DNA of 38,235 bases from Candidatus Moraniibacteriota bacterium. GTDB taxonomy: Bacteria; Patescibacteriota; Minisyncoccia; Moranbacterales; UBA1568. Made by a program: the position numbers and the translations under genes. The stretch is from NCBI GenBank assembly GCA_037139695.1, contig JBAXFX010000003.1:1-38235 (forward strand), given 5' to 3'. This document shows positions 1,105 through 38,235 of this stretch, in pieces (the stretch's first letter is position 1; each line of letters opens with the position of its first letter). The notes beneath the pieces were generated by a model, which was given only the letters and a program-made list of their open reading frames with translations, was not told the DNA's origin and did not search any database.

Positions 1105-1857
1105 TCAACGGGCGACGACAATGCCGAAAACCTTCTTTACTCCGGATTTTTTTAGTACTTTGGCACATTCCTCGAGCGTCGCGCCGGTCGTGGCGACATC
1201 GTCGATGAGCCAGACAACCTTGCCTTTCAGTTCCTTTCTCGCTGTTCTCCTATCGACCGGGAGCGAGAAGGCACCTCGGAGGTTTTCTTTCCGTTCTCTG
1301 GCAGTACGACTCTTTGCCTGCGGGAGTGTGAACCGGTGCCGGATGAGCAGGTCTTCGTGGACGGGAACCGGTAGCTCCGGCATGAACGCGGCCGCGAAGG
1401 ATCGCGCAAGCAGGGCGGACTGATTGAATCCGCGATAGCGGAGTCGCCAGGCATGGAGTGGGACGGGAACGAGGAAATCAGGGAGTGGCAGTTCGGTCCT
1501 GGATGCCGATTCGGCAAGCAACGCGCCGAGCGGGGTGGCGAGCTCTTGGACATACTCGTATTTGAACACGTGTATCGCCTGAGCGATTGTTGATGCCTCG
1601 CGGAATGCGGTCACGGAAAAAATCCCGTCGAGCGCGTGCTGTGGGGCGCAGGAAAAACAGGTTCGTCCTTCCGGCACGAGGACCGTCTCACAGAAGGGGC
1701 AGACGTATTCCTGTTTTCGTGGAGCGTTGCGTAGGCACGCGCCGCAGAGATAGGAGTCCTTCCGTCCGCATCCGATGCAGGCACGCGGAAACAGGACATC
1801 GGCGAGGAATTCCCTCGTACGAAACAGGAGATCGATGTGACGAGGCGTGTTTTCCAT
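1105..1857 (-). CDS. comF: ComF family competence protein (double zinc ribbon + phosphoribosyltransferase domain)
   Basis: CxxC pairs at the N-terminus, VPVPLH..RGFNQS, and PRPP motif LIDDVATTGATL. Confidence 0.93.
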   Translation of the reverse strand: MENTPRHIDLLFRTREFLADVLFPRACIGCGRKDSYLCGACLRNAPRKQEYVCPFCETVLVPEGRTCFSCAPQHALDGIFSVTAFREASTIAQAIHVFKYEYVQELATPLGALLAESASRTELPLPDFLVPVPLHAWRLRYRGFNQSALLARSFAAAFMPELPVPVHEDLLIRHRFTLPQAKSRTARERKENLRGAFSLPVDRRTARKELKGKVVWLIDDVATTGATLEECAKVLKKSGVKKVFGIVVAR

Positions 1858-1883
1858 AAAGCACCTTTCGATCGGTACCCGGA

Positions 1884-7338: not shown

Positions 7339-9066
7339 ATGAATGATGTTTCTCCCGATCAAAAAAAGAGCGTCATTCCAGTAGCCGGACGAATCATGTC
7401 TGTTTCTGTCGGGAATGAGGAGTCGTCGGAAGATGCGTTAAAGAAGCGTGCCGAGGTGCTCGATATGCCGTTTTTTTCCGTGCTACCAGGGAAGGGAGGG
7501 ATAAGGCGAGACATATTGGAATACATACCGGAGGAGGCTGCCCAAAAATATCAGATGGCCGCGTATGAGAAGGAGGGAAATACGCTTCGGGTGGCGATGA
7601 CCGATCCGGAAAACTACGAAGCCTTGAACATTCTTCGTTTCGTGGCCGAAAAAGAACAGTTGAATATAGATATAGCGTTGGTTCCCAAGAAGCTTATCGA
7701 TGAACTGTTGAAAAAATATACCAGTACGGACCGAGCGCTCGAGGAGGCGATTTACTCCTTGAAGGATGAAAATGGCAGTGCAAAAAACTCCCTTGAAAGA
7801 AGCGGGAAGACCGCGAACCCCGAAGAGCGGGAAAACTTTCAGGATGCGCCGATCGCCCGTCTCGTCGAATCGATCGTGGAATATGCGATTGAAGGTCGTG
7901 CGAGCGACATCCATATAGAGCCGGCCGAGGGGCAGTACCGAGTCCGTTTCCGCGTCGACGGATTACTCCGTTCATCGCTTGTGTTCCCGCCTCCGATCGG
8001 AAAGGCGGTAGTCGCGCGTATCAAGATCCTTTCGAACCTGAAGATCGATGAGAAGCGGAAACCGCAGGACGGACGGTTCCGGATGGACCATGACGGTGAG
8101 TTCGTCGACTTCCGTGTCTCGACCCTGCCGGTCGTGGACGGAGAGAAGGTCGTGATGCGGGTGCTCGTCAAGAAGGAAAGTACCGTTGATTTCAATGAGA
8201 TGGGACTCTGGGGCCGGATCGGCGAGCTGTTGCGAAAGAAGATTACTGAGCCGTACGGTATCATTCTTATGACCGGACCAACCGGATCGGGGAAATCGAC
8301 GACGCTGTATTCGTTCCTGCAGATCCTGAATCAGGAAGAGCGGAACATTATCACGCTCGAGGACCCGGTCGAATATTCCATCGAAGGCATCAACCAGAGT
8401 CAGGTGAAACCGGAAATCGGGTACACGTTCGCGAATGGGCTCCGGTCCATCCTGCGACAGGACCCGAACGTAATCATGGTCGGTGAGATTCGTGACGGTG
8501 AGACCGCCGAATTGGCGATCCACTCCGCGCTTACCGGCCATCTTGTGCTCTCGACCCTGCATACGAACAGTGCTATCGGATCCATCCCGCGGTTCATGGA
8601 TATGGGGGTGGAGCCGTTCCTGATCGCTTCCGCCGTACAGGTGGTTGCGGCGCAGCGACTTGTCCGTCGTATCTGTCTTGATTGTCGGGAGAAGATAGAG
8701 GTCAGTCCGGAACTACGGAAGAGGATAGCGAAAGCTATTGAGAATATCGATCTCGAAGAATTGGAGAAATACGGGTATGATCCGAAAGAGGGCATCCATC
8801 TTTTTCACGGGAAAGGATGTGATTCATGCGGGAATTCCGGCTATCGCGGTCGGATCGCCATCTATGAGGCGTTTGAGGTGAATGACGCCGTGAAACGGAT
8901 CATCACCGACGAACACGCGAATGAGGCGAAGCTCATCGAAGCGGCAAGTCGGCAGAAGATGCTTACATTGCGTCAGGATGGTATACTGAAGGCGCTCCGG
9001 GGGCTGACGACCCTGACCGAAGTCGATCTCGTGACGGATGGCGATGTCATGATTGACGAGGAATAA
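7339..9066 (+). CDS. pilB: type IV pilus extension ATPase PilB (GspE/PulE family)
   Basis: ASDIHIEP, PQDGR, Walker A GPTGSGKST, TLEDPVEY, LRQDPNVIMVGEIRD, His box TGHLVLSTLHTN and zinc CxxC pairs. Confidence 0.95.
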   Translation: MNDVSPDQKKSVIPVAGRIMSVSVGNEESSEDALKKRAEVLDMPFFSVLPGKGGIRRDILEYIPEEAAQKYQMAAYEKEGNTLRVAMTDPENYEALNILRFVAEKEQLNIDIALVPKKLIDELLKKYTSTDRALEEAIYSLKDENGSAKNSLERSGKTANPEERENFQDAPIARLVESIVEYAIEGRASDIHIEPAEGQYRVRFRVDGLLRSSLVFPPPIGKAVVARIKILSNLKIDEKRKPQDGRFRMDHDGEFVDFRVSTLPVVDGEKVVMRVLVKKESTVDFNEMGLWGRIGELLRKKITEPYGIILMTGPTGSGKSTTLYSFLQILNQEERNIITLEDPVEYSIEGINQSQVKPEIGYTFANGLRSILRQDPNVIMVGEIRDGETAELAIHSALTGHLVLSTLHTNSAIGSIPRFMDMGVEPFLIASAVQVVAAQRLVRRICLDCREKIEVSPELRKRIAKAIENIDLEELEKYGYDPKEGIHLFHGKGCDSCGNSGYRGRIAIYEAFEVNDAVKRIITDEHANEAKLIEAASRQKMLTLRQDGILKALRGLTTLTEVDLVTDGDVMIDEE

Positions 9067-9090
9067 TGATACTAATCAGGATTACCGTAT

Positions 9091-9555
9091 ATGGAAACTT
9101 CGAGATTCGCCGGAAAAAAAATATTGTTGGTCGAGGACGATTTCTTCGTTCGGGACATCTATCAGCGGAAGCTTCGGGAGTGCGGATTCGAGGTCCGATC
9201 GGCCGAGAACGGTGTTGAAGGGATGGAATGCCTGAAAGAATCCGTTCCCGATCTCGTGATGCTCGATATCTTCATGCCGTATATGGACGGCCGCGACGTG
9301 TTGCGGGAGATCAAGGCGAACGAGGCATGGAAACATATTCCGGTCATCCTGCTTACGAACTTCTCGGCAAGTGAGGGTGTCCGAGACGGGTTCAGTCTCG
9401 GTGCGGAGGAATACCTCATCAAGTCGCACTTCACTCCGTCCGAAGTCCTTCGGAAAGTGGAGTCTGTCTTGGAGAAGACGGGAAAGGGTGGTATCCTGAA
9501 GGAAGGATCGTCCTTGGGTGAAACTGATTCCGGTCTCGTGACGATAAACACATAA
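9091..9555 (+). CDS. stand-alone response regulator receiver protein (CheY-like)
   Basis: LLVEDD, phosphoacceptor LDIFMPYMDG, LTN and YLIKS; no output domain. Confidence 0.9.
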   Translation: METSRFAGKKILLVEDDFFVRDIYQRKLRECGFEVRSAENGVEGMECLKESVPDLVMLDIFMPYMDGRDVLREIKANEAWKHIPVILLTNFSASEGVRDGFSLGAEEYLIKSHFTPSEVLRKVESVLEKTGKGGILKEGSSLGETDSGLVTINT

Positions 9556-9568
9556 CCGATACGAACCT

Positions 9569-10666
9569 ATGTCCGACGGATCCGAAATACTGCATGCCGA
9601 ACAACGCGTCAAGAACCTGCTTCTTCTGGTCGGTCAGCAAGGCGCGTCCGATCTTCATCTGGTCGTCGGCCGTTATCCGACACTCCGCATCAACGGGAAA
9701 TTGCACCCGATCACGCAGGAAAAGATTTTGACGCCGGCCGATACGAAAGCACTTTCGGACATTCTACTGAGCGAAGAGGGTAAAGACGAGCTTTTGTCCG
9801 CCGGTCAGACCGACTTCTCGTATAATTTCGAGAATCGGATGCGGTTCCGTACGAACATCTTTTTTCAGAAGGGATTCGTGAGCGTGACGATGCGGTTCGT
9901 CATGGACCATGTCCGCAACCTGGAGGAGCTTAATATCCCGAACTCGCTCTACAATTTCGCGAATTATTCCCAGGGCCTGGTGCTGGTGACGGGACCGGTC
10001 GGACACGGCAAGTCGACCACGCTCGCGGCCATCATCGAGTACATCAATCACAATCAGGAGAAGCACATCGTCACCATCGAGGACCCGATCGAGTTCGTCT
10101 ACACGCAGGACCGATGCATCATCAACCAGCGCGAGGTCGGTCGCGACGCGAAGACGTTCCCGCTCGCCCTGCGGGCCGTGTTCCGCGAGGACGCGAACGT
10201 GGTCATGCTGGCCGAGCTCCGCGACCTCGAGACGATCGCCACTGCGATGACCGCGGCCGAGACGGGGCACCTCATCTTCGCGACGGTGCACACGAACGAT
10301 GCGGCACAGACTATCGACCGTATCATCGACGTCTTCTCGGCGCACCAGCAGAATCAGATTCGTGCGCAATTGGCGAGCGTCCTCCTCGGAGTCATCTCCC
10401 AGCGGCTTATCCCCCGCATGGACGGGGCGGGACGCATCCCGGCCGTGGAGATCATGCTGAAGAACCATGCGGTGGAGAACCTTATCCGCGAGAACAAGAC
10501 GCATCAGATTGACAGTGTCATCGAGACGAGTCTCAAGGAGGGGATGGTCTCGCTTGACCGGTCGCTCGCCGATCTGGTCCGTCGCGGGCTCATCTCGGTG
10601 AACGACGCGCTCACCTACGCGAAGAACCGTCAGTATCTCGAGATGCTTATCGCCAAAGGTGAGTGA
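9569..10666 (+). CDS. pilT: type IV pilus retraction ATPase PilT
   Basis: ASDLHL, GPVGHGKST, TIEDPIEF, NQREVG, AAETGHL and an AIRNLIRE-like AVENLIRE. Confidence 0.95.
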   Translation: MSDGSEILHAEQRVKNLLLLVGQQGASDLHLVVGRYPTLRINGKLHPITQEKILTPADTKALSDILLSEEGKDELLSAGQTDFSYNFENRMRFRTNIFFQKGFVSVTMRFVMDHVRNLEELNIPNSLYNFANYSQGLVLVTGPVGHGKSTTLAAIIEYINHNQEKHIVTIEDPIEFVYTQDRCIINQREVGRDAKTFPLALRAVFREDANVVMLAELRDLETIATAMTAAETGHLIFATVHTNDAAQTIDRIIDVFSAHQQNQIRAQLASVLLGVISQRLIPRMDGAGRIPAVEIMLKNHAVENLIRENKTHQIDSVIETSLKEGMVSLDRSLADLVRRGLISVNDALTYAKNRQYLEMLIAKGE

Positions 10667-36350: not shown

Positions 36351-36731
36351 ATGCGTAAGAAAATCGTGAAAAATATAGCGGATACCCATATCGGCGGATT
36401 CATGCAGTTCATACGGGAACAGGGCGTGGTCGGACTCGCGACCGGTTTTCTTCTCGGTGGTGCGGTCTCGAAAGTCGTCACGGCATTCGTGACGGATATC
36501 ATCAATCCGGTCATGAGTATCGTGCTTGGTTCGGCGGAAGGATTTCGTCAGGCCTCCGTGAAGATTTTCGGCGTGGATGTACTCTGGGGTGATTTCGCGA
36601 GCGTGCTGATCGATTTCTTGATTGTCGCGGCGGTCGTCTACTTCGGATTCAAGGGGCTCGGCCTCGACAAGCTCGACAAGAAGAAAGAGAAACCGGAAGA
36701 GAAGGTCGAGGATACGGGAAAGAAAAAATAG
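36351..36731 (+). CDS. mscL: large-conductance mechanosensitive channel family protein
   Basis: FMQFIREQGVVGLATGFLLGGA, FVTDIINP and WGDFASVLIDFLIVA. Confidence 0.9.
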   Translation: MRKKIVKNIADTHIGGFMQFIREQGVVGLATGFLLGGAVSKVVTAFVTDIINPVMSIVLGSAEGFRQASVKIFGVDVLWGDFASVLIDFLIVAAVVYFGFKGLGLDKLDKKKEKPEEKVEDTGKKK

Positions 36732-36816
36732 GCCGATCGGAATCCTATATCCGATAAAAAAAAGAACAGGAAGCCGCATAGCGATTTCCTGTAGTGGTTC
36801 GTTCCGACAGATCATG

Positions 36817-37068
36817 TCATGTCGTTACGGCATGACCGAGGTAGTTTCCGCATACGTCCGATGCTATGCAGAATTTACCCGTTCCTTTAAAAAATAATTT
36901 TCCGAGAAAGCGATCCCAGGTCTGGAAACGGAAAGATCCGTCCTGACCGATTTTGATCTCCTCCATTCCGGGCATGATGTTCCCGCTGAACTTTTTTGTG
37001 ATCGCGGCGATAAGCTTAGTCGCGCTTTCTTTCGTTGCAGGCGTTCTTTTGGGAGCTGTGAAAGCCAT
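36817..37068 (-). CDS. small hypothetical protein
   Basis: 83-aa ATG ORF with AT-rich upstream DNA, filling the gap between mscL and the tRNA promoter; no recognised motif. Confidence 0.4.
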   Translation of the reverse strand: MAFTAPKRTPATKESATKLIAAITKKFSGNIMPGMEEIKIGQDGSFRFQTWDRFLGKLFFKGTGKFCIASDVCGNYLGHAVTT

Positions 37069-37247
37069 TATGGTAATATTTAATTATGTTTAAGAACAAA
37101 ACCAGCCTGATACTCAGGTTGATAGTTCATTCATATCACATATATTCTGAATGCGCAAGGTCTCAGAAGTGATGCCACGGAAAGCCTGTATCCGGTCTAA
37201 TTTTTTCGCTTCGGCGGGCAACGGCATTCGAATCATTCATTTCCGGC

Positions 37248-37276
37248 TTGATAACCCCGGGAAACGGTGTTACCAT
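37248..37276 (+). promoter_or_regulatory. sigma70 promoter of the tRNA locus
   Basis: TTGATA-17 bp-TACCAT with an extended TG. Confidence 0.65.
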
Positions 37277-37344
37277 GTGTCTGTTCCTTATTTTCTCTAT
37301 CTGGCGCCAATCGGCGTTGTTTTGGAGAAAATGATTGTTGTAAC

Positions 37345-37501
37345 GGAGAGATGGCTGAGCGGCTTCGGCCCTTCATTCCGCTCGGGCGGAATAAAGGGCC
37401 ACCGTGGCATGGGGTAACACCCATCGAGGGTTCGTCCGGCATGCGCCTACACTGCTCATTGTTCTCGTGGTGTACCCGGCGAATGCCCGGGCGAATCCTT
37501 C
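37345..37501 (+). pseudogene. tRNA-Ser-like relic with two hairpin insertions; no anticodon loop and no acceptor 3' strand
   Basis: GGAGAGATGGCTGAGCGGCTT 5' end, long variable arm ATGGG-GTAACA-CCCAT, and split T arm GAGGGTTCG//AATCCTTC. Confidence 0.7.
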
Positions 37502-37542
37502 CAACGTTGAATGACAATCGGTTCATGATGAGTATAGAAACT

Positions 37543-37631
37543 GGAGAGGTGGCTGAGTGGTCGAAAGCGGCACACTGCTAATGTGTTGTGCGGGTAAAAC
37601 CGCACCGCGGGTTCGAATCCCGCCCTCTCCG
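37543..37631 (+). tRNA. tRNA-Ser(GCT)
   Basis: Acceptor GGAGAGG/CCTCTCC, anticodon arm GCACA-CTGCTAA-TGTGT, long variable arm, T arm GCGGG-TTCGAAT-CCCGC, discriminator G; CCA not encoded. Confidence 0.97.
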
Positions 37632-38235
37632 CAGTGAATGAAATGAACGAGGAAGAGGAGAAAGCGAACTGCTTCGCTTTCGAGTGGGATGAGAACGGAT
37701 TTCCCCTGAAAGGGAAATCAGTGGCACGGAGTGGAATCCCGCCCTCTCCGCAAAAGCAAATATCCGCCCCTTCCGAAGGGGCGGATATTCGTTTCTTTGA
37801 GGATGGAAGGGGGATTCGAAGGGTATTCCAAAAAAGCAAACTGCTTTGCATTTTTGGAAACCCGGGCTCTGGATGAGGAGATTCGCTTAAACAGCGAATC
37901 GACGAGGGAGGAGGAATCCCTCTCTCTCCGCAGTGAATGAAATGAACGAGGAAGAGAAGCAAGCCAACTGCTTGGCTTGCGGGAGGGATGAGAACGGATT
38001 TCCCCTGAAAGGGAAATCAGTGGCACGGAGTGGAATCCCTCTCTCCGCAGTGAACGAGGAAGAGAAGCAAGTCAACTGCTTGGCTTGCGGGAGGGATGAG
38101 AACGGATTTCCCCTGAAAGGGAAATCAGTGGCACGGAGTGGAATCCCTCTCTCCGCAGTGAACGAGGAAGAGAAGCAAGTCAACTGCTTGGCTTGCGGGA
38201 GGGATGAGAACGGATTTCCCCTGAAAGGGAAATCA
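37615..38235 (+). repeat. tRNA-anchored tandem array of structured 108-180 bp units, each ending in a tRNA-Ser 3'-end copy; truncated by the window end
   Basis: GAATCCC(GC/TC/-)..CTCTCCGCA at 37615, 37734, 37914, 38033 and 38141; units are 37634-37752, 37753-37932, 37933-38049, 38050-38157 and 38158 onward. Confidence 0.92.
37759..37798 (+). terminator. strong hairpin, probable terminator, inside the array
   Basis: AATATCCGCCCCTT-ccg-AAGGGGCGGATATT followed by CGTTTCTTT. Confidence 0.75.

Follow-up and report, generated by a model that had tools for sequence, protein, structure and literature searches.

Candidate RtT-like RNA modules that end in the tail of their host tRNA, arrayed behind tRNA genes of a Candidatus Moraniibacteriota bacterium

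The 38,235-nucleotide (nt) contig JBAXFX010000003.1 of a Candidatus Moraniibacteriota bacterium (assembly GCA_037139695.1), hereafter called the window, closes with a gene for tRNA-Ser(GCT) and a tandem array of short units, most of which resemble the repeats known as RtT that follow tRNA-Tyr genes in Escherichia coli. These units represent a folded element in the sense of the tRNA that is tailored to its host tRNA, is widespread, and has an RtT-like build. We favour, with moderate confidence, the broader reading that the array is a chain of RtT-like structured RNA modules that reside in tRNA operons and wear the tail of the host tRNA. The window is one complete contig (C3) of a genome of approximately 1.2 Mb that is divided among 106 contigs (G000).

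The tRNA-Ser(GCT) gene at the head of the array (37543-37632, plus strand) is called by ARAGORN and by the Rfam tRNA model (63.4 bits), does not encode CCA, and carries an allele that we designate type 1. A 19-mer of this gene, GAATCCCGCCCTCTCCGCA, extends from the T loop to two bases past the discriminator (37615-37633) and recurs exactly at 37734-37752 and with two mismatches at 37914-37932. Three such matches were found where 0.01 was expected, and none of 100 shuffled sequences reached three, which confirms the recurrence of the tRNA 3′ end that had been pointed out in a sequence-only reading of this DNA. That reading was also correct in giving the unit lengths behind the tRNA as 119, 180, 117 and 108 bp followed by an incomplete fifth unit. 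Further copies that it placed near 38033 and 38141 are indeed present (38032-38049 and 38140-38157; 0.00 expected by chance), but they are not the same sequence, being instead the variant GGAATCCCTCTCTCCGCA that is 2 nt shorter. Tandem Repeats Finder (TRF) reports a period of 108 with 2.7 copies and 99% matches for positions 37943-38235.

All units lie on the plus strand, and the family that we call A accounts for the first unit and for those from the third onward. Unit A1 (37634-37752, 119 bp; 133.3 bits with the covariance model R1 introduced below; fold of -41.2 kcal/mol, z-score -2.56) begins 1-2 nt past the end of the tRNA gene, and its 3′ end is identical to the tRNA tail at 16/16 positions. 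From its 5′ end, this RtT-like unit comprises a leader, an acceptor-like 5′ strand GGAAGAGG, a hairpin (H1), the strand GAGTGGGAT that pairs with ATCCCGC, the sequence GAGAA, two more hairpins (H2 and H3), and finally GGAATCC with the tRNA 3′ end. Unit A3 (37933-38049, 117 bp; 124.5 bits with R1; fold z-score -2.69) is likewise RtT-like and carries a pairing strand, GGGAGGGAT, that matches its 3′ end ATCCCTCTC, which resembles the tail of the type 2 tRNA-Ser(GCT) allele described further below. Unit A4 (38050-38157, 108 bp; found by TRF and by R1 with 106.5 bits at C3:38049-38158) is like A3 with a leader that is 9 nt shorter, and unit A5 (38158-38235; 64.8 bits with R1) is cut by the contig end such that its 3′ side is missing. 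Unit B (37753-37932, 180 bp; fold of -84.4 kcal/mol, z-score -6.07) stands between A1 and A3. In its predicted fold, a near-antisense copy of the T loop and 3′ strand (GGAAGGGGGATTCGAAGGG) pairs with the terminal GGAATCCCTCTCTCTCCGCA to form a long closing helix around two hairpins, and its tail is exactly that of type 2 tRNA-Ser(GCT). At the start of unit B is a terminator-like hairpin with a 14-bp stem, 7 G-C pairs and a T-rich tail (hairpin 37759-37789, feature to 37799), which is also the first helix of the predicted B fold. Overall, fold z-scores are -2.6 to -3.7 for single A units, and -6.1 and -8.3 for B-type units.

Given that the array stops at a contig end and that related units occur at the ends of other contigs (C75, C45, C81, C41), it is fair to ask whether it is an artefact produced by a repeat loop in the assembly graph, particularly as contigs cannot give the copy number of the 108-bp unit. 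We regard this explanation as extremely improbable. Comparable arrays lie inside contigs in congeners (G006, G007, G005) and in single-contig genomes (G021, G075). Moreover, unitigs of the probable source run tile 37000-38157, and an independent run (X3) contains a 1634-nt contig with a related arrangement of B followed by A, so the array is not the product of a single assembly. The array is real, although the number of 108-bp units is uncertain because the contig breaks within it. The last 50 nt of the window are identical to the end of contig C81 (reverse strand), which past this overlap holds another A unit, a terminator-like hairpin and B-like units, and the array therefore seems, from its sequence, to continue onto C81.

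A seed alignment of 11 family A units, drawn from seven genomes and five host tRNAs, yields a single consensus. Each unit is on the same strand as its tRNA and ends in the last 17-19 nt of that tRNA, starting from the T loop. The consensus opens with a conserved leader followed by an acceptor-like stem that is completed by the acceptor 3′ strand of the tail. Hairpin H1 has 9 bp and the loop CUGC. Next is a T-stem-like helix wherein GNGGGAU, whose strand carries an AU extension, pairs with AUCCCNC, which constitutes the T-stem 3′ strand plus two T-loop bases. Directly after the 5′ strand of this helix come GAGAA (motif GAUGAGAA), H2, a 3-bp H3 (CNC-GNA-GN'G) and G-GAAUC, and the sequence GGGATGAGAA is invariant across the seed. 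The unit is colinear with a tRNA that has no D arm and that bears an insert in its T loop. A hammerhead or k-turn reading of GAUGAGAA was dropped on inspection by eye because strand topology and flanking bases misfit.

Covariation points to a folded single strand. Compensatory change is evident in 16 of the 30 base pairs of the seed alignment, from which we built the covariance model R1. Among 60 sequences aligned as matches to R1, 96.0% of cells are paired and 26 of the 30 pairs are altered on both sides. None of 500 shuffles is as high, and structures slid by 1-3 columns pair in 34-59% of cells. Helix 3 of the model is paired in 98.5% of cells, with two-sided changes in three of its six pairs, and covariation extends over five helices in all. 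G-U cells exceed A-C cells (55 versus 21), and this asymmetry favours the tRNA-sense strand as the one that folds.

The strands that pair with the tail vary according to which tRNA is the host (Ser, fMet, Tyr, Arg, Pro, Leu, Val, Lys or Glu), while the core of the unit remains recognizable throughout. For Ser(GCT) and fMet hosts, the tail-pairing strand reads GAGCGGGAU or GAGUGGGAU; for Ser(CGA) it is GGGAGGGAU, for Arg GUCAGGAC, and for Leu and Val GUGAGGAC. The strands of a first unit could also compete with the fold of the tRNA itself. As a variation on the consensus, an A unit at locus L010 of congener G003 (approximately 1715-1795) has an insert of about 75 nt in the H1 loop, and the same form is present in a contig of run X3.

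With no D arm, a 4-nt H1 loop and an expanded T loop, the units do not qualify as functional tRNAs, and neither ARAGORN nor the Rfam tRNA model calls any of them a tRNA, the sole call at the window end being 37543-37632. They could instead be decaying tandem tRNA duplicates (pseudogenes) or scars of replication slippage that have no function of their own. The order of parts is consistent with this view, since it runs as in a tRNA from an acceptor 5′ strand, through a hairpin where the anticodon arm would be and the T-stem strands, to an acceptor 3′ strand. In addition, the hairpin loop ACUGCU recalls the GCU anticodon loop, and the final units of arrays often have degenerate tails. However, independent decay would not yield the same GAUGAGAA core behind more than ten tRNAs in several phyla, and pairing in 96% of cells with 26/30 compensatory pairs implies selection on the fold. 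We therefore consider decay a quite improbable origin.

The same kinds of unit are located behind other tRNAs of this genome. An initiator-type tRNA-Met (fMet) on contig C75 is followed by 113-bp A-family units that each end in its own tail, GGAATCCCACCCCCGCAAC, and this array carries over to contig C45 through a 34-nt overlap. On contig C4, tRNA-Tyr precedes one A-family unit with a Tyr tail, and contig C64 includes a B-type unit with the tail of tRNA-Gly(TCC). The gene for tRNA-Arg(TCG) is at the end of contig C52, and units with an Arg tail open contig C41; judging from these sequences, the latter probably belong behind the former. According to a census of the genome, 12 of its 39 distinct 15-nt tRNA tails are repeated exactly at least once outside a tRNA gene, mostly directly downstream, and several of the extra copies reside in other small unit families. 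The sequence-only reading had proposed a check for units that accompany other tRNAs with matching 3′ ends, and such units exist both in this genome and in its relatives. Because family A accompanies other tRNAs with their own 3′ ends, the array cannot be reduced to local slippage or to an artefact.

To describe the relation between unit and host, we set aside two of the 60 R1 matches in the available loci, which are cut at the 3′ side, and examined the other 58. A same-strand tRNA lies upstream in the locus for 42 matches, and the 16 that have none are mostly at contig ends. Thirty of the 42 units start no more than 3 nt from the tRNA end, and the remainder are mostly later units of an array. 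The last 16 nt of the upstream tRNA are reproduced exactly in 24 of the 42 units and at 14 or more of 16 positions in 30. The misses are mostly degenerate last units, long-variant units cut short by R1, or the case of one intron-bearing host tRNA that ARAGORN did not call. The hosts are tRNAs for fMet, Ser(GCT, CGA, GGA), Tyr, Pro(CGG, TGG), Leu(GAG), Val(TAC), Lys(TTT) and Glu(TTC), to which the Arg host in the present genome can be added. At locus L025 of G018 (1649-1866, minus strand), a tRNA-Tyr gene that ARAGORN does not call is split by a group I intron (44.9 bits with Rfam versus a gathering score of 50), and long-variant RtT-like units come next.

The element is common among relatives. 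BLAST detects unit DNA in 30 of 61 genomes, including the one that holds the window, with hits in 8/8 congeners, 24/36 genomes in the family, and three other families of the order. By using R1, the element was found in 77 of 107 genomes of the taxonomic family, covering 12/12 genera, and in five further genomes among 150 sampled from the phylum. In four of these five phylum-level examples, the unit closes with the tail of the preceding tRNA (Leu-TAA, Ser-GGA, Ser-TGA and Val-TAC), and the fifth (L096), behind Ser-CGA, has a degenerate tail copy. A simple pattern scan of one genome per species, which required GGGATGAGAA, then 30-60 nt, then GGAATCCC, gave at least 121 matches in at least 118 loci, a yield to be read against a chance expectation that rough arithmetic puts at about 500 matches in the collection. 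For 29 of the 121 matches listed, a tRNA on the same strand lies no more than 700 nt upstream, and in 25 of those 29 the match ends in at least 14/16 nt of the tail of that tRNA. These 25, again among the matches listed, come from records whose titles are mostly Patescibacteria, but also include Saprospiraceae, Balneolaceae, Rhodohalobacter, a Bacteroidota metagenome-assembled genome (MAG) and Cryptobacteroides, with the caution that MAG labels may be wrong in places.

The closest known counterpart is RtT of E. coli, reportedly described for tRNA-Tyr by Egan and Landy in 1978, Rossi and colleagues in 1981, and Bosl and Kersten in 1991. In E. coli K-12, the 19-nt tail of tRNA-Tyr, AATCCTTCCCCCACCACCA, occurs six times, namely at the ends of tyrT and tyrV and in four repeats, of which one is 175 nt past tyrT and three follow at 178-nt steps past tyrV. 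Rfam likewise gives four RtT matches (RF00391; gene rttR) at tyrT and tyrV. The RtT consensus has a closing helix, GgGaaGG.AU/AUCCuuCcC, that is directly followed by GAUGAGAA and that contains hairpins within.

Like RtT, the units described here are located directly 3′ of a tRNA gene, on its strand and in tandem. Each RtT repeat ends in the last 19 nt of the tRNA from AAUCC of the T loop, as our units end in theirs. In both, the closing helix is formed by an upstream complement, the T-stem 3′ strand and the first acceptor bases, and then gives way to GAUGAGAA in a layout that includes GGAUGAGAA and G/A/C-rich loops of the GAGCGAAGCGA kind. The position on the same strand 3′ of the tRNA, the tRNA-tail end, the tandem repetition, and the closing helix with GAUGAGAA are thus all features of RtT that the units possess. 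Unlike RtT repeats of 178 bp, family A units span 108-119 bp, they add an acceptor-like stem and hairpin H1 upstream, and they appear behind many tRNAs in one genome. Another difference from RtT is that they do not encode CCA, as the host tRNA genes lack it. By this analogy, the suggestion in the sequence-only reading that the array may be transcribed and cut at its tRNA-like ends into small RNAs would have a direct precedent in E. coli RtT.

Related observations have been made elsewhere. Passages of one study report Northern signals for RtT members beside Asn- and Lys-tRNA genes of Actinobacillus (PMC4986893), and passages of another tie rtT RNA to processing of the tyrT transcript and to the stringent response (bioRxiv 10.1101/2024.07.17.603846). 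The latest version of a further preprint (PMC10542128) mentions neither RtT nor tyrT. Our search of open-access papers in PubMed Central (PMC) and of bioRxiv returned no account of a wider RtT superfamily, nor of arrays in Patescibacteria that are tailored to tRNAs.

If the array is indeed a chain of RtT-like modules, its use can be sketched as follows. Unit A1 would be transcribed together with tRNA-Ser from a promoter-like site at 37248-37276 (plus strand), where a consensus scan finds TTGATA, a 17-nt spacer and TACCAT with a preceding TG. By eye, a similar TTGATA...ATACCAT or ATATCAT stretch lies upstream of tRNA-Ser(GCT) in congeners. Transcription is predicted to stop before or at the hairpin at 37759-37789. 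The minihelix that resembles an acceptor and T arm would then recruit the tRNA-processing machinery, which is predicted to release and stabilize the unit: RNase P would act on the 5′ side, the 3′ end would be trimmed, and CCA would be added. The genome encodes a CCA-adding-type enzyme. The inner hairpins may be the working part, or else the whole unit might mimic the acceptor arm of a tRNA. Unequal recombination between the repeated tails would expand and contract the arrays, and cores could be swapped between them. The distal units (B and A3-A5) probably derive from an older array of the second tRNA-Ser(GCT) allele that was displaced when the present tRNA and A1 arrived.

Unfortunately, several observations weigh against this reading. 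The RF00391 model has no match at E≤1 in 36500-38235 or at E≤10 in the whole genome, where its gathering threshold of 45 bits is not reached, and R1 in turn scores E. coli RtT at 4-9 bits. Since the two models fail to cross-match, homology to RtT rests on architecture, a motif of 7-9 nt, and one sub-threshold bridge. This bridge is a Bacteroidota unit that the RtT model aligns in the expected register with 28.5 bits, below the gathering threshold of 45, and an E value of 0.0012 that applies to a 351-nt search; the match was not seen in a larger Rfam search. Besides tRNA, Rfam finds only sub-threshold matches over the units in the window end, in eight loci of the long-variant or other types, and in eight further loci. 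The strong pairing in the 60-match alignment is also flattered by the fact that the alignment was fitted to R1, which favours pairing. Among 18 informative units, the pairing strands fit the preceding tail copy as well as their own tail and show no clear preference, and so the fold as drawn is not the sole option. A terminator-like hairpin parts A1 from the remaining units of the window, and similar hairpins precede long-variant units in other genera, so that the tRNA transcript may not reach many of the units. A search of the genome for RNase Z (TIGR02651) found none, which leaves the 3′ cut without an assigned enzyme. Finally, the model offers no mechanism by which pairing strands are re-tailored to a new tRNA.

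The E. coli locus also raises the prospect that the repeats encode a small protein, given that the K-12 annotation places the 'protamine-like' tpr gene of the rtT region inside rttR. Some features of the array can be read in this manner. An open frame of 101 amino acids passes through A3-A5 (37933-38235) and is open at its 3′ end, 108 is a multiple of 3, and the leader looks like a ribosome-binding site with GTG or ATG after it. Nevertheless, the frame set by the conserved motif is open in just 26 of 49 distinct units, on which grounds we rejected the coding reading. Units and inserts also differ in length by non-multiples of 3 (119, 117, 113 and 108 bp), and the changes between units preserve base pairs rather than residues. 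The chance that these repeats are coding is therefore very small.

A different kind of explanation is that the units are miniature non-autonomous cassettes, which entered, one unit or one block of units at a time, by site-specific recombination in the tRNA T loop with the help of an enzyme supplied in trans. Each cassette would bring a copy of the tRNA 3′ end and displace the older one downstream. There is some circumstantial agreement with this proposal. Among seven tRNA-Ser(GCT) loci in the genus, the presence of units varies at the same tRNA, with A units in the present genome and in G006, a B-type start in G005, and none in G001, G003, G007 and G008. A broken second tRNA-Ser allele ahead of the array stops exactly in the T loop (GGGTTCG) at 37434, other small families of this genome likewise regenerate tRNA parts, and a 27-nt copy of the T arm and 3′ end of the tRNA is found about 2.9 kb further along C81. 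The genome also encodes three large serine recombinases, and the genes of two of them abut or overlap tRNA genes (C2 1837-3312 and C88 418-2286, at tRNA-Gln and tRNA-Ser(GGA)), and in G003 (L085, 1466-3088, minus strand) one such gene runs antisense through tRNA-Ser(GCT) itself. This proximity of serine recombinase genes to tRNA genes marks tRNA 3′ ends as recombination hot spots in the lineage. As an aside, these genes, which have Resolvase, Recombinase and zinc-ribbon domains, converge on the tRNAs as if the attachment (att) site were within the 3′ end of the recombinase gene.

Even with these points, we consider serial integration unlikely as an account of the units. The att model fails to explain internal strands that covary with the host tail, and it fails again on compensatory changes in distant hairpins. 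Ten or more host tRNAs would demand equally many site specificities, and no common recombinase has been shown for a layout that is the same from E. coli to Bacteroidota. The sole tyrosine recombinase of the genome, a Phage_integrase family protein with Xer-type domains, is encoded on another contig (C36). Single-unit circles are also unlikely, because a unit of 108-119 bp falls short of one persistence length of duplex DNA. The sequence-only reading had noted that no credible open reading frame (ORF), integrase or cas gene lies nearby. The window indeed has no ORF for a recombinase within or next to the units, but the absence reflects the contig break, as the array overlaps C81. Elsewhere in the genome are three reverse transcriptases (C60, C40 and C9) that score below the cut-off for group II intron maturases, with that on C40 located beside an ORF with a Y1-transposase domain. 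The genome contains two Y1-transposase-domain matches and one IS110-type gene on a 1.2-kb contig, and no TnpB-type match was found in it. None of these recombinases, reverse transcriptases and transposases is located beside a family A array in the genome, and no link between them and the units was found. Integration may nevertheless be the way in which units are seeded, and it can coexist with an RNA role.

A resemblance to integrons or to clustered regularly interspaced short palindromic repeats (CRISPR), which the sequence-only reading had proposed as serial integration, possibly by an enzyme acting in trans, likewise has no direct support: the lone Xer-type tyrosine recombinase lies elsewhere, and att duplication does not explain the complementary strands. 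As in integron and CRISPR arrays, serial units are parted by a recurring short sequence. However, no integron-type integrase is found in the genome, the units are not coding, and the 'spacers' between the repeats are homologous to one another, while cas genes were not searched for. The array is not integron-like or CRISPR-like by any tested feature. Partial tRNA duplications by integrative elements, in which a direct repeat of the tRNA 3′ part lies downstream of the intact tRNA, are described in passages of a published study (PMC9897764). The units resemble such duplications in that the 3′ part of the tRNA is directly repeated at their far end, and the locus family also offers the 27-nt copy and recombinase genes. 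They differ in that the 'element' is 108-180 bp, gene-free and folded, with strands complementary to the repeat.

Congeners throw light on the history of the locus. They carry two tRNA-Ser(GCT) alleles, with type 1, in which the tRNA is identical to that of the window, in G001, G005 and G006, and type 2, whose tail is GAATCCCTCTCTCTCCGCA, in G003, G007 and G008. The tails of unit B and of the later A units, which the sequence-only reading had counted as recurrences of the tRNA 3′ end, are not decayed versions of the adjacent tail but match the tail of the second allele in these three congeners. The A3-A5 tail is two bases shorter than the type 2 tail, and the pairing strand GGGAGGGAU fits it. 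Upstream of the intact gene is a degenerate tRNA-Ser-like element (37345-37505, plus strand), recognized by comparison by eye with intact type 2 tRNA and with a pseudo-copy in G008 (L084), that neither ARAGORN nor Rfam calls a tRNA. Its first portion (37345-37434) is the 5′ part of type 2 tRNA-Ser(GCT), in which a long hairpin replaces the anticodon arm and which breaks off within the T loop after GGGTTCG. An insert (37435-37492) then occupies the T loop ahead of GAATCC (37493-37498). From these sequences, the simplest reading is that an older type 2 tRNA with its array was split, and that the type 1 tRNA and A1 now lie between the parts. The downstream flank shared by G001, G007 and G008, which appears ancestral, was not found in the present genome at up to 4 errors, and the inserted block therefore cannot be delimited.

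Exchange between arrays is suggested by a 45-nt core that is identical between A1 and two units of the fMet array, because the shared core fits fMet better than Ser(GCT): its GUGGGAU strand pairs perfectly with fMet and through one G-U pair with Ser(GCT). Two side observations can be added. Split-T-loop partial tRNA-Ser elements, with an insert TCCGGCA...CCCGGCGAATG.CCGGGC between TTCG and GAATC, are also present at C46 (approximately 10240-10330; L034) and in G008 (L084, approximately 1503-1640), such that the kind is conserved between congeners, and a long hairpin replaces the anticodon arm in the window and G008 examples. On C81 (L038), a gene similar to class II aminoacyl-tRNA synthetases (tRNA-synt_2b and HGTP_anticodon) and a peptidase S51 gene occupy 571-1326 and 1290-2788, between the presumed continuation of the array and the 27-nt copy of the T arm and 3′ end of tRNA-Ser(GCT).

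Other small unit families of the genome are built from tRNA parts in different ways. On C52 (8431-8650; L032), tRNA-His is followed by three 67-bp units, in each of which the acceptor 3′ strand is combined with a complete T arm whose loop is altered (TTGTTT). On C11 (13140-13840; L031), tRNA-Gln(TTG) is followed by four units of about 180-310 bp. At its start, each carries the tRNA 3′ end and T loop in perfect antisense form, and a degenerate sense copy closes it. The inner sequence of these units is also present at the start of C52 and on C13 and C64. A further small family with the motif CACCCAAAGGGTGACCAGCCTCTGGCTGG (C4 approximately 8970-9250, C46 approximately 1230-1350, and G007 L086 approximately 1370-1440) joins tRNA parts at varied breaks, which include the T loop of Thr(GGT), the anticodon loop of Glu(TTC), and the D loop of an inverted tRNA-Ser 5′ fragment.

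Two other known systems deserve comparison with the RtT-like modules proposed here. Plant mitochondrial t-elements and the mascRNA of MALAT1 employ mimics of the acceptor and T arms that recruit tRNA-processing enzymes and thereby release a neighbouring RNA. Unlike our units, these systems are eukaryotic or organellar, and they show no sequence relationship to the units; nor are they arranged in tandem or adapted to a tRNA next to them. The sX4 small RNA of Xanthomonas (RF02223) has a consensus that reads like tRNA-Ser, a spacer, and GGGGGGUGAGA paired with a CCCCCC T-stem strand, which is equivalent to the start of an RtT-like unit. The sX4 model aligns with tRNA-Ser plus unit start at 37531-37692 (19.9 bits) and in eight other loci (27.0-35.2 bits), although every one of these matches falls far short of the gathering score of 70 and owes its bits largely to the tRNA part. 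Passages of a report that detected sX4 on Northern blots mention no tRNA (PMC3300014).

It is tempting to view RtT, sX4 and the arrays described here as a single superfamily of 'tRNA-tailored' elements that move between tRNA genes and have their strands rewritten for each host, or as a general bacterial device for carrying a payload RNA on a scaffold copied from tRNA. We consider this rather unlikely. In such a reading, the superfamily may range over Patescibacteria, Bacteroidota, Balneolaceae with Rhodohalobacter, and Gammaproteobacteria. If true, elements that move and are rewritten would imply templated copying or guide-like targeting beyond the known recombinase and retroelement models. 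If the device version were true, the scaffold would let a payload be cut out and kept stable, or would let it mimic the acceptor arm of an uncharged tRNA.

To our knowledge, the tyrT-distal repeats have been recognized for more than 40 years and rtT RNA for more than 30 without an accepted function, and they have been treated as a peculiarity of one operon. The RtT design is now seen behind a dozen tRNAs in small-genome bacteria, with look-alikes in Bacteroidota, which makes it a family that is open to comparison. Its constant parts (GAUGAGAA, G-GAAUC and the hairpins) and its tailored parts (the pairing strands) are defined, the predicted tRNA-like fold is testable, and E. coli can serve as a tractable model for the arrays of the candidate phyla radiation (CPR). 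There is also a practical consequence, as assemblies break at tRNA loci that carry such arrays, and an array can be taken in error for the att site of an integrated element. Thus, an old E. coli element is generalized to many tRNAs and, according to the pattern scan, to other phyla.

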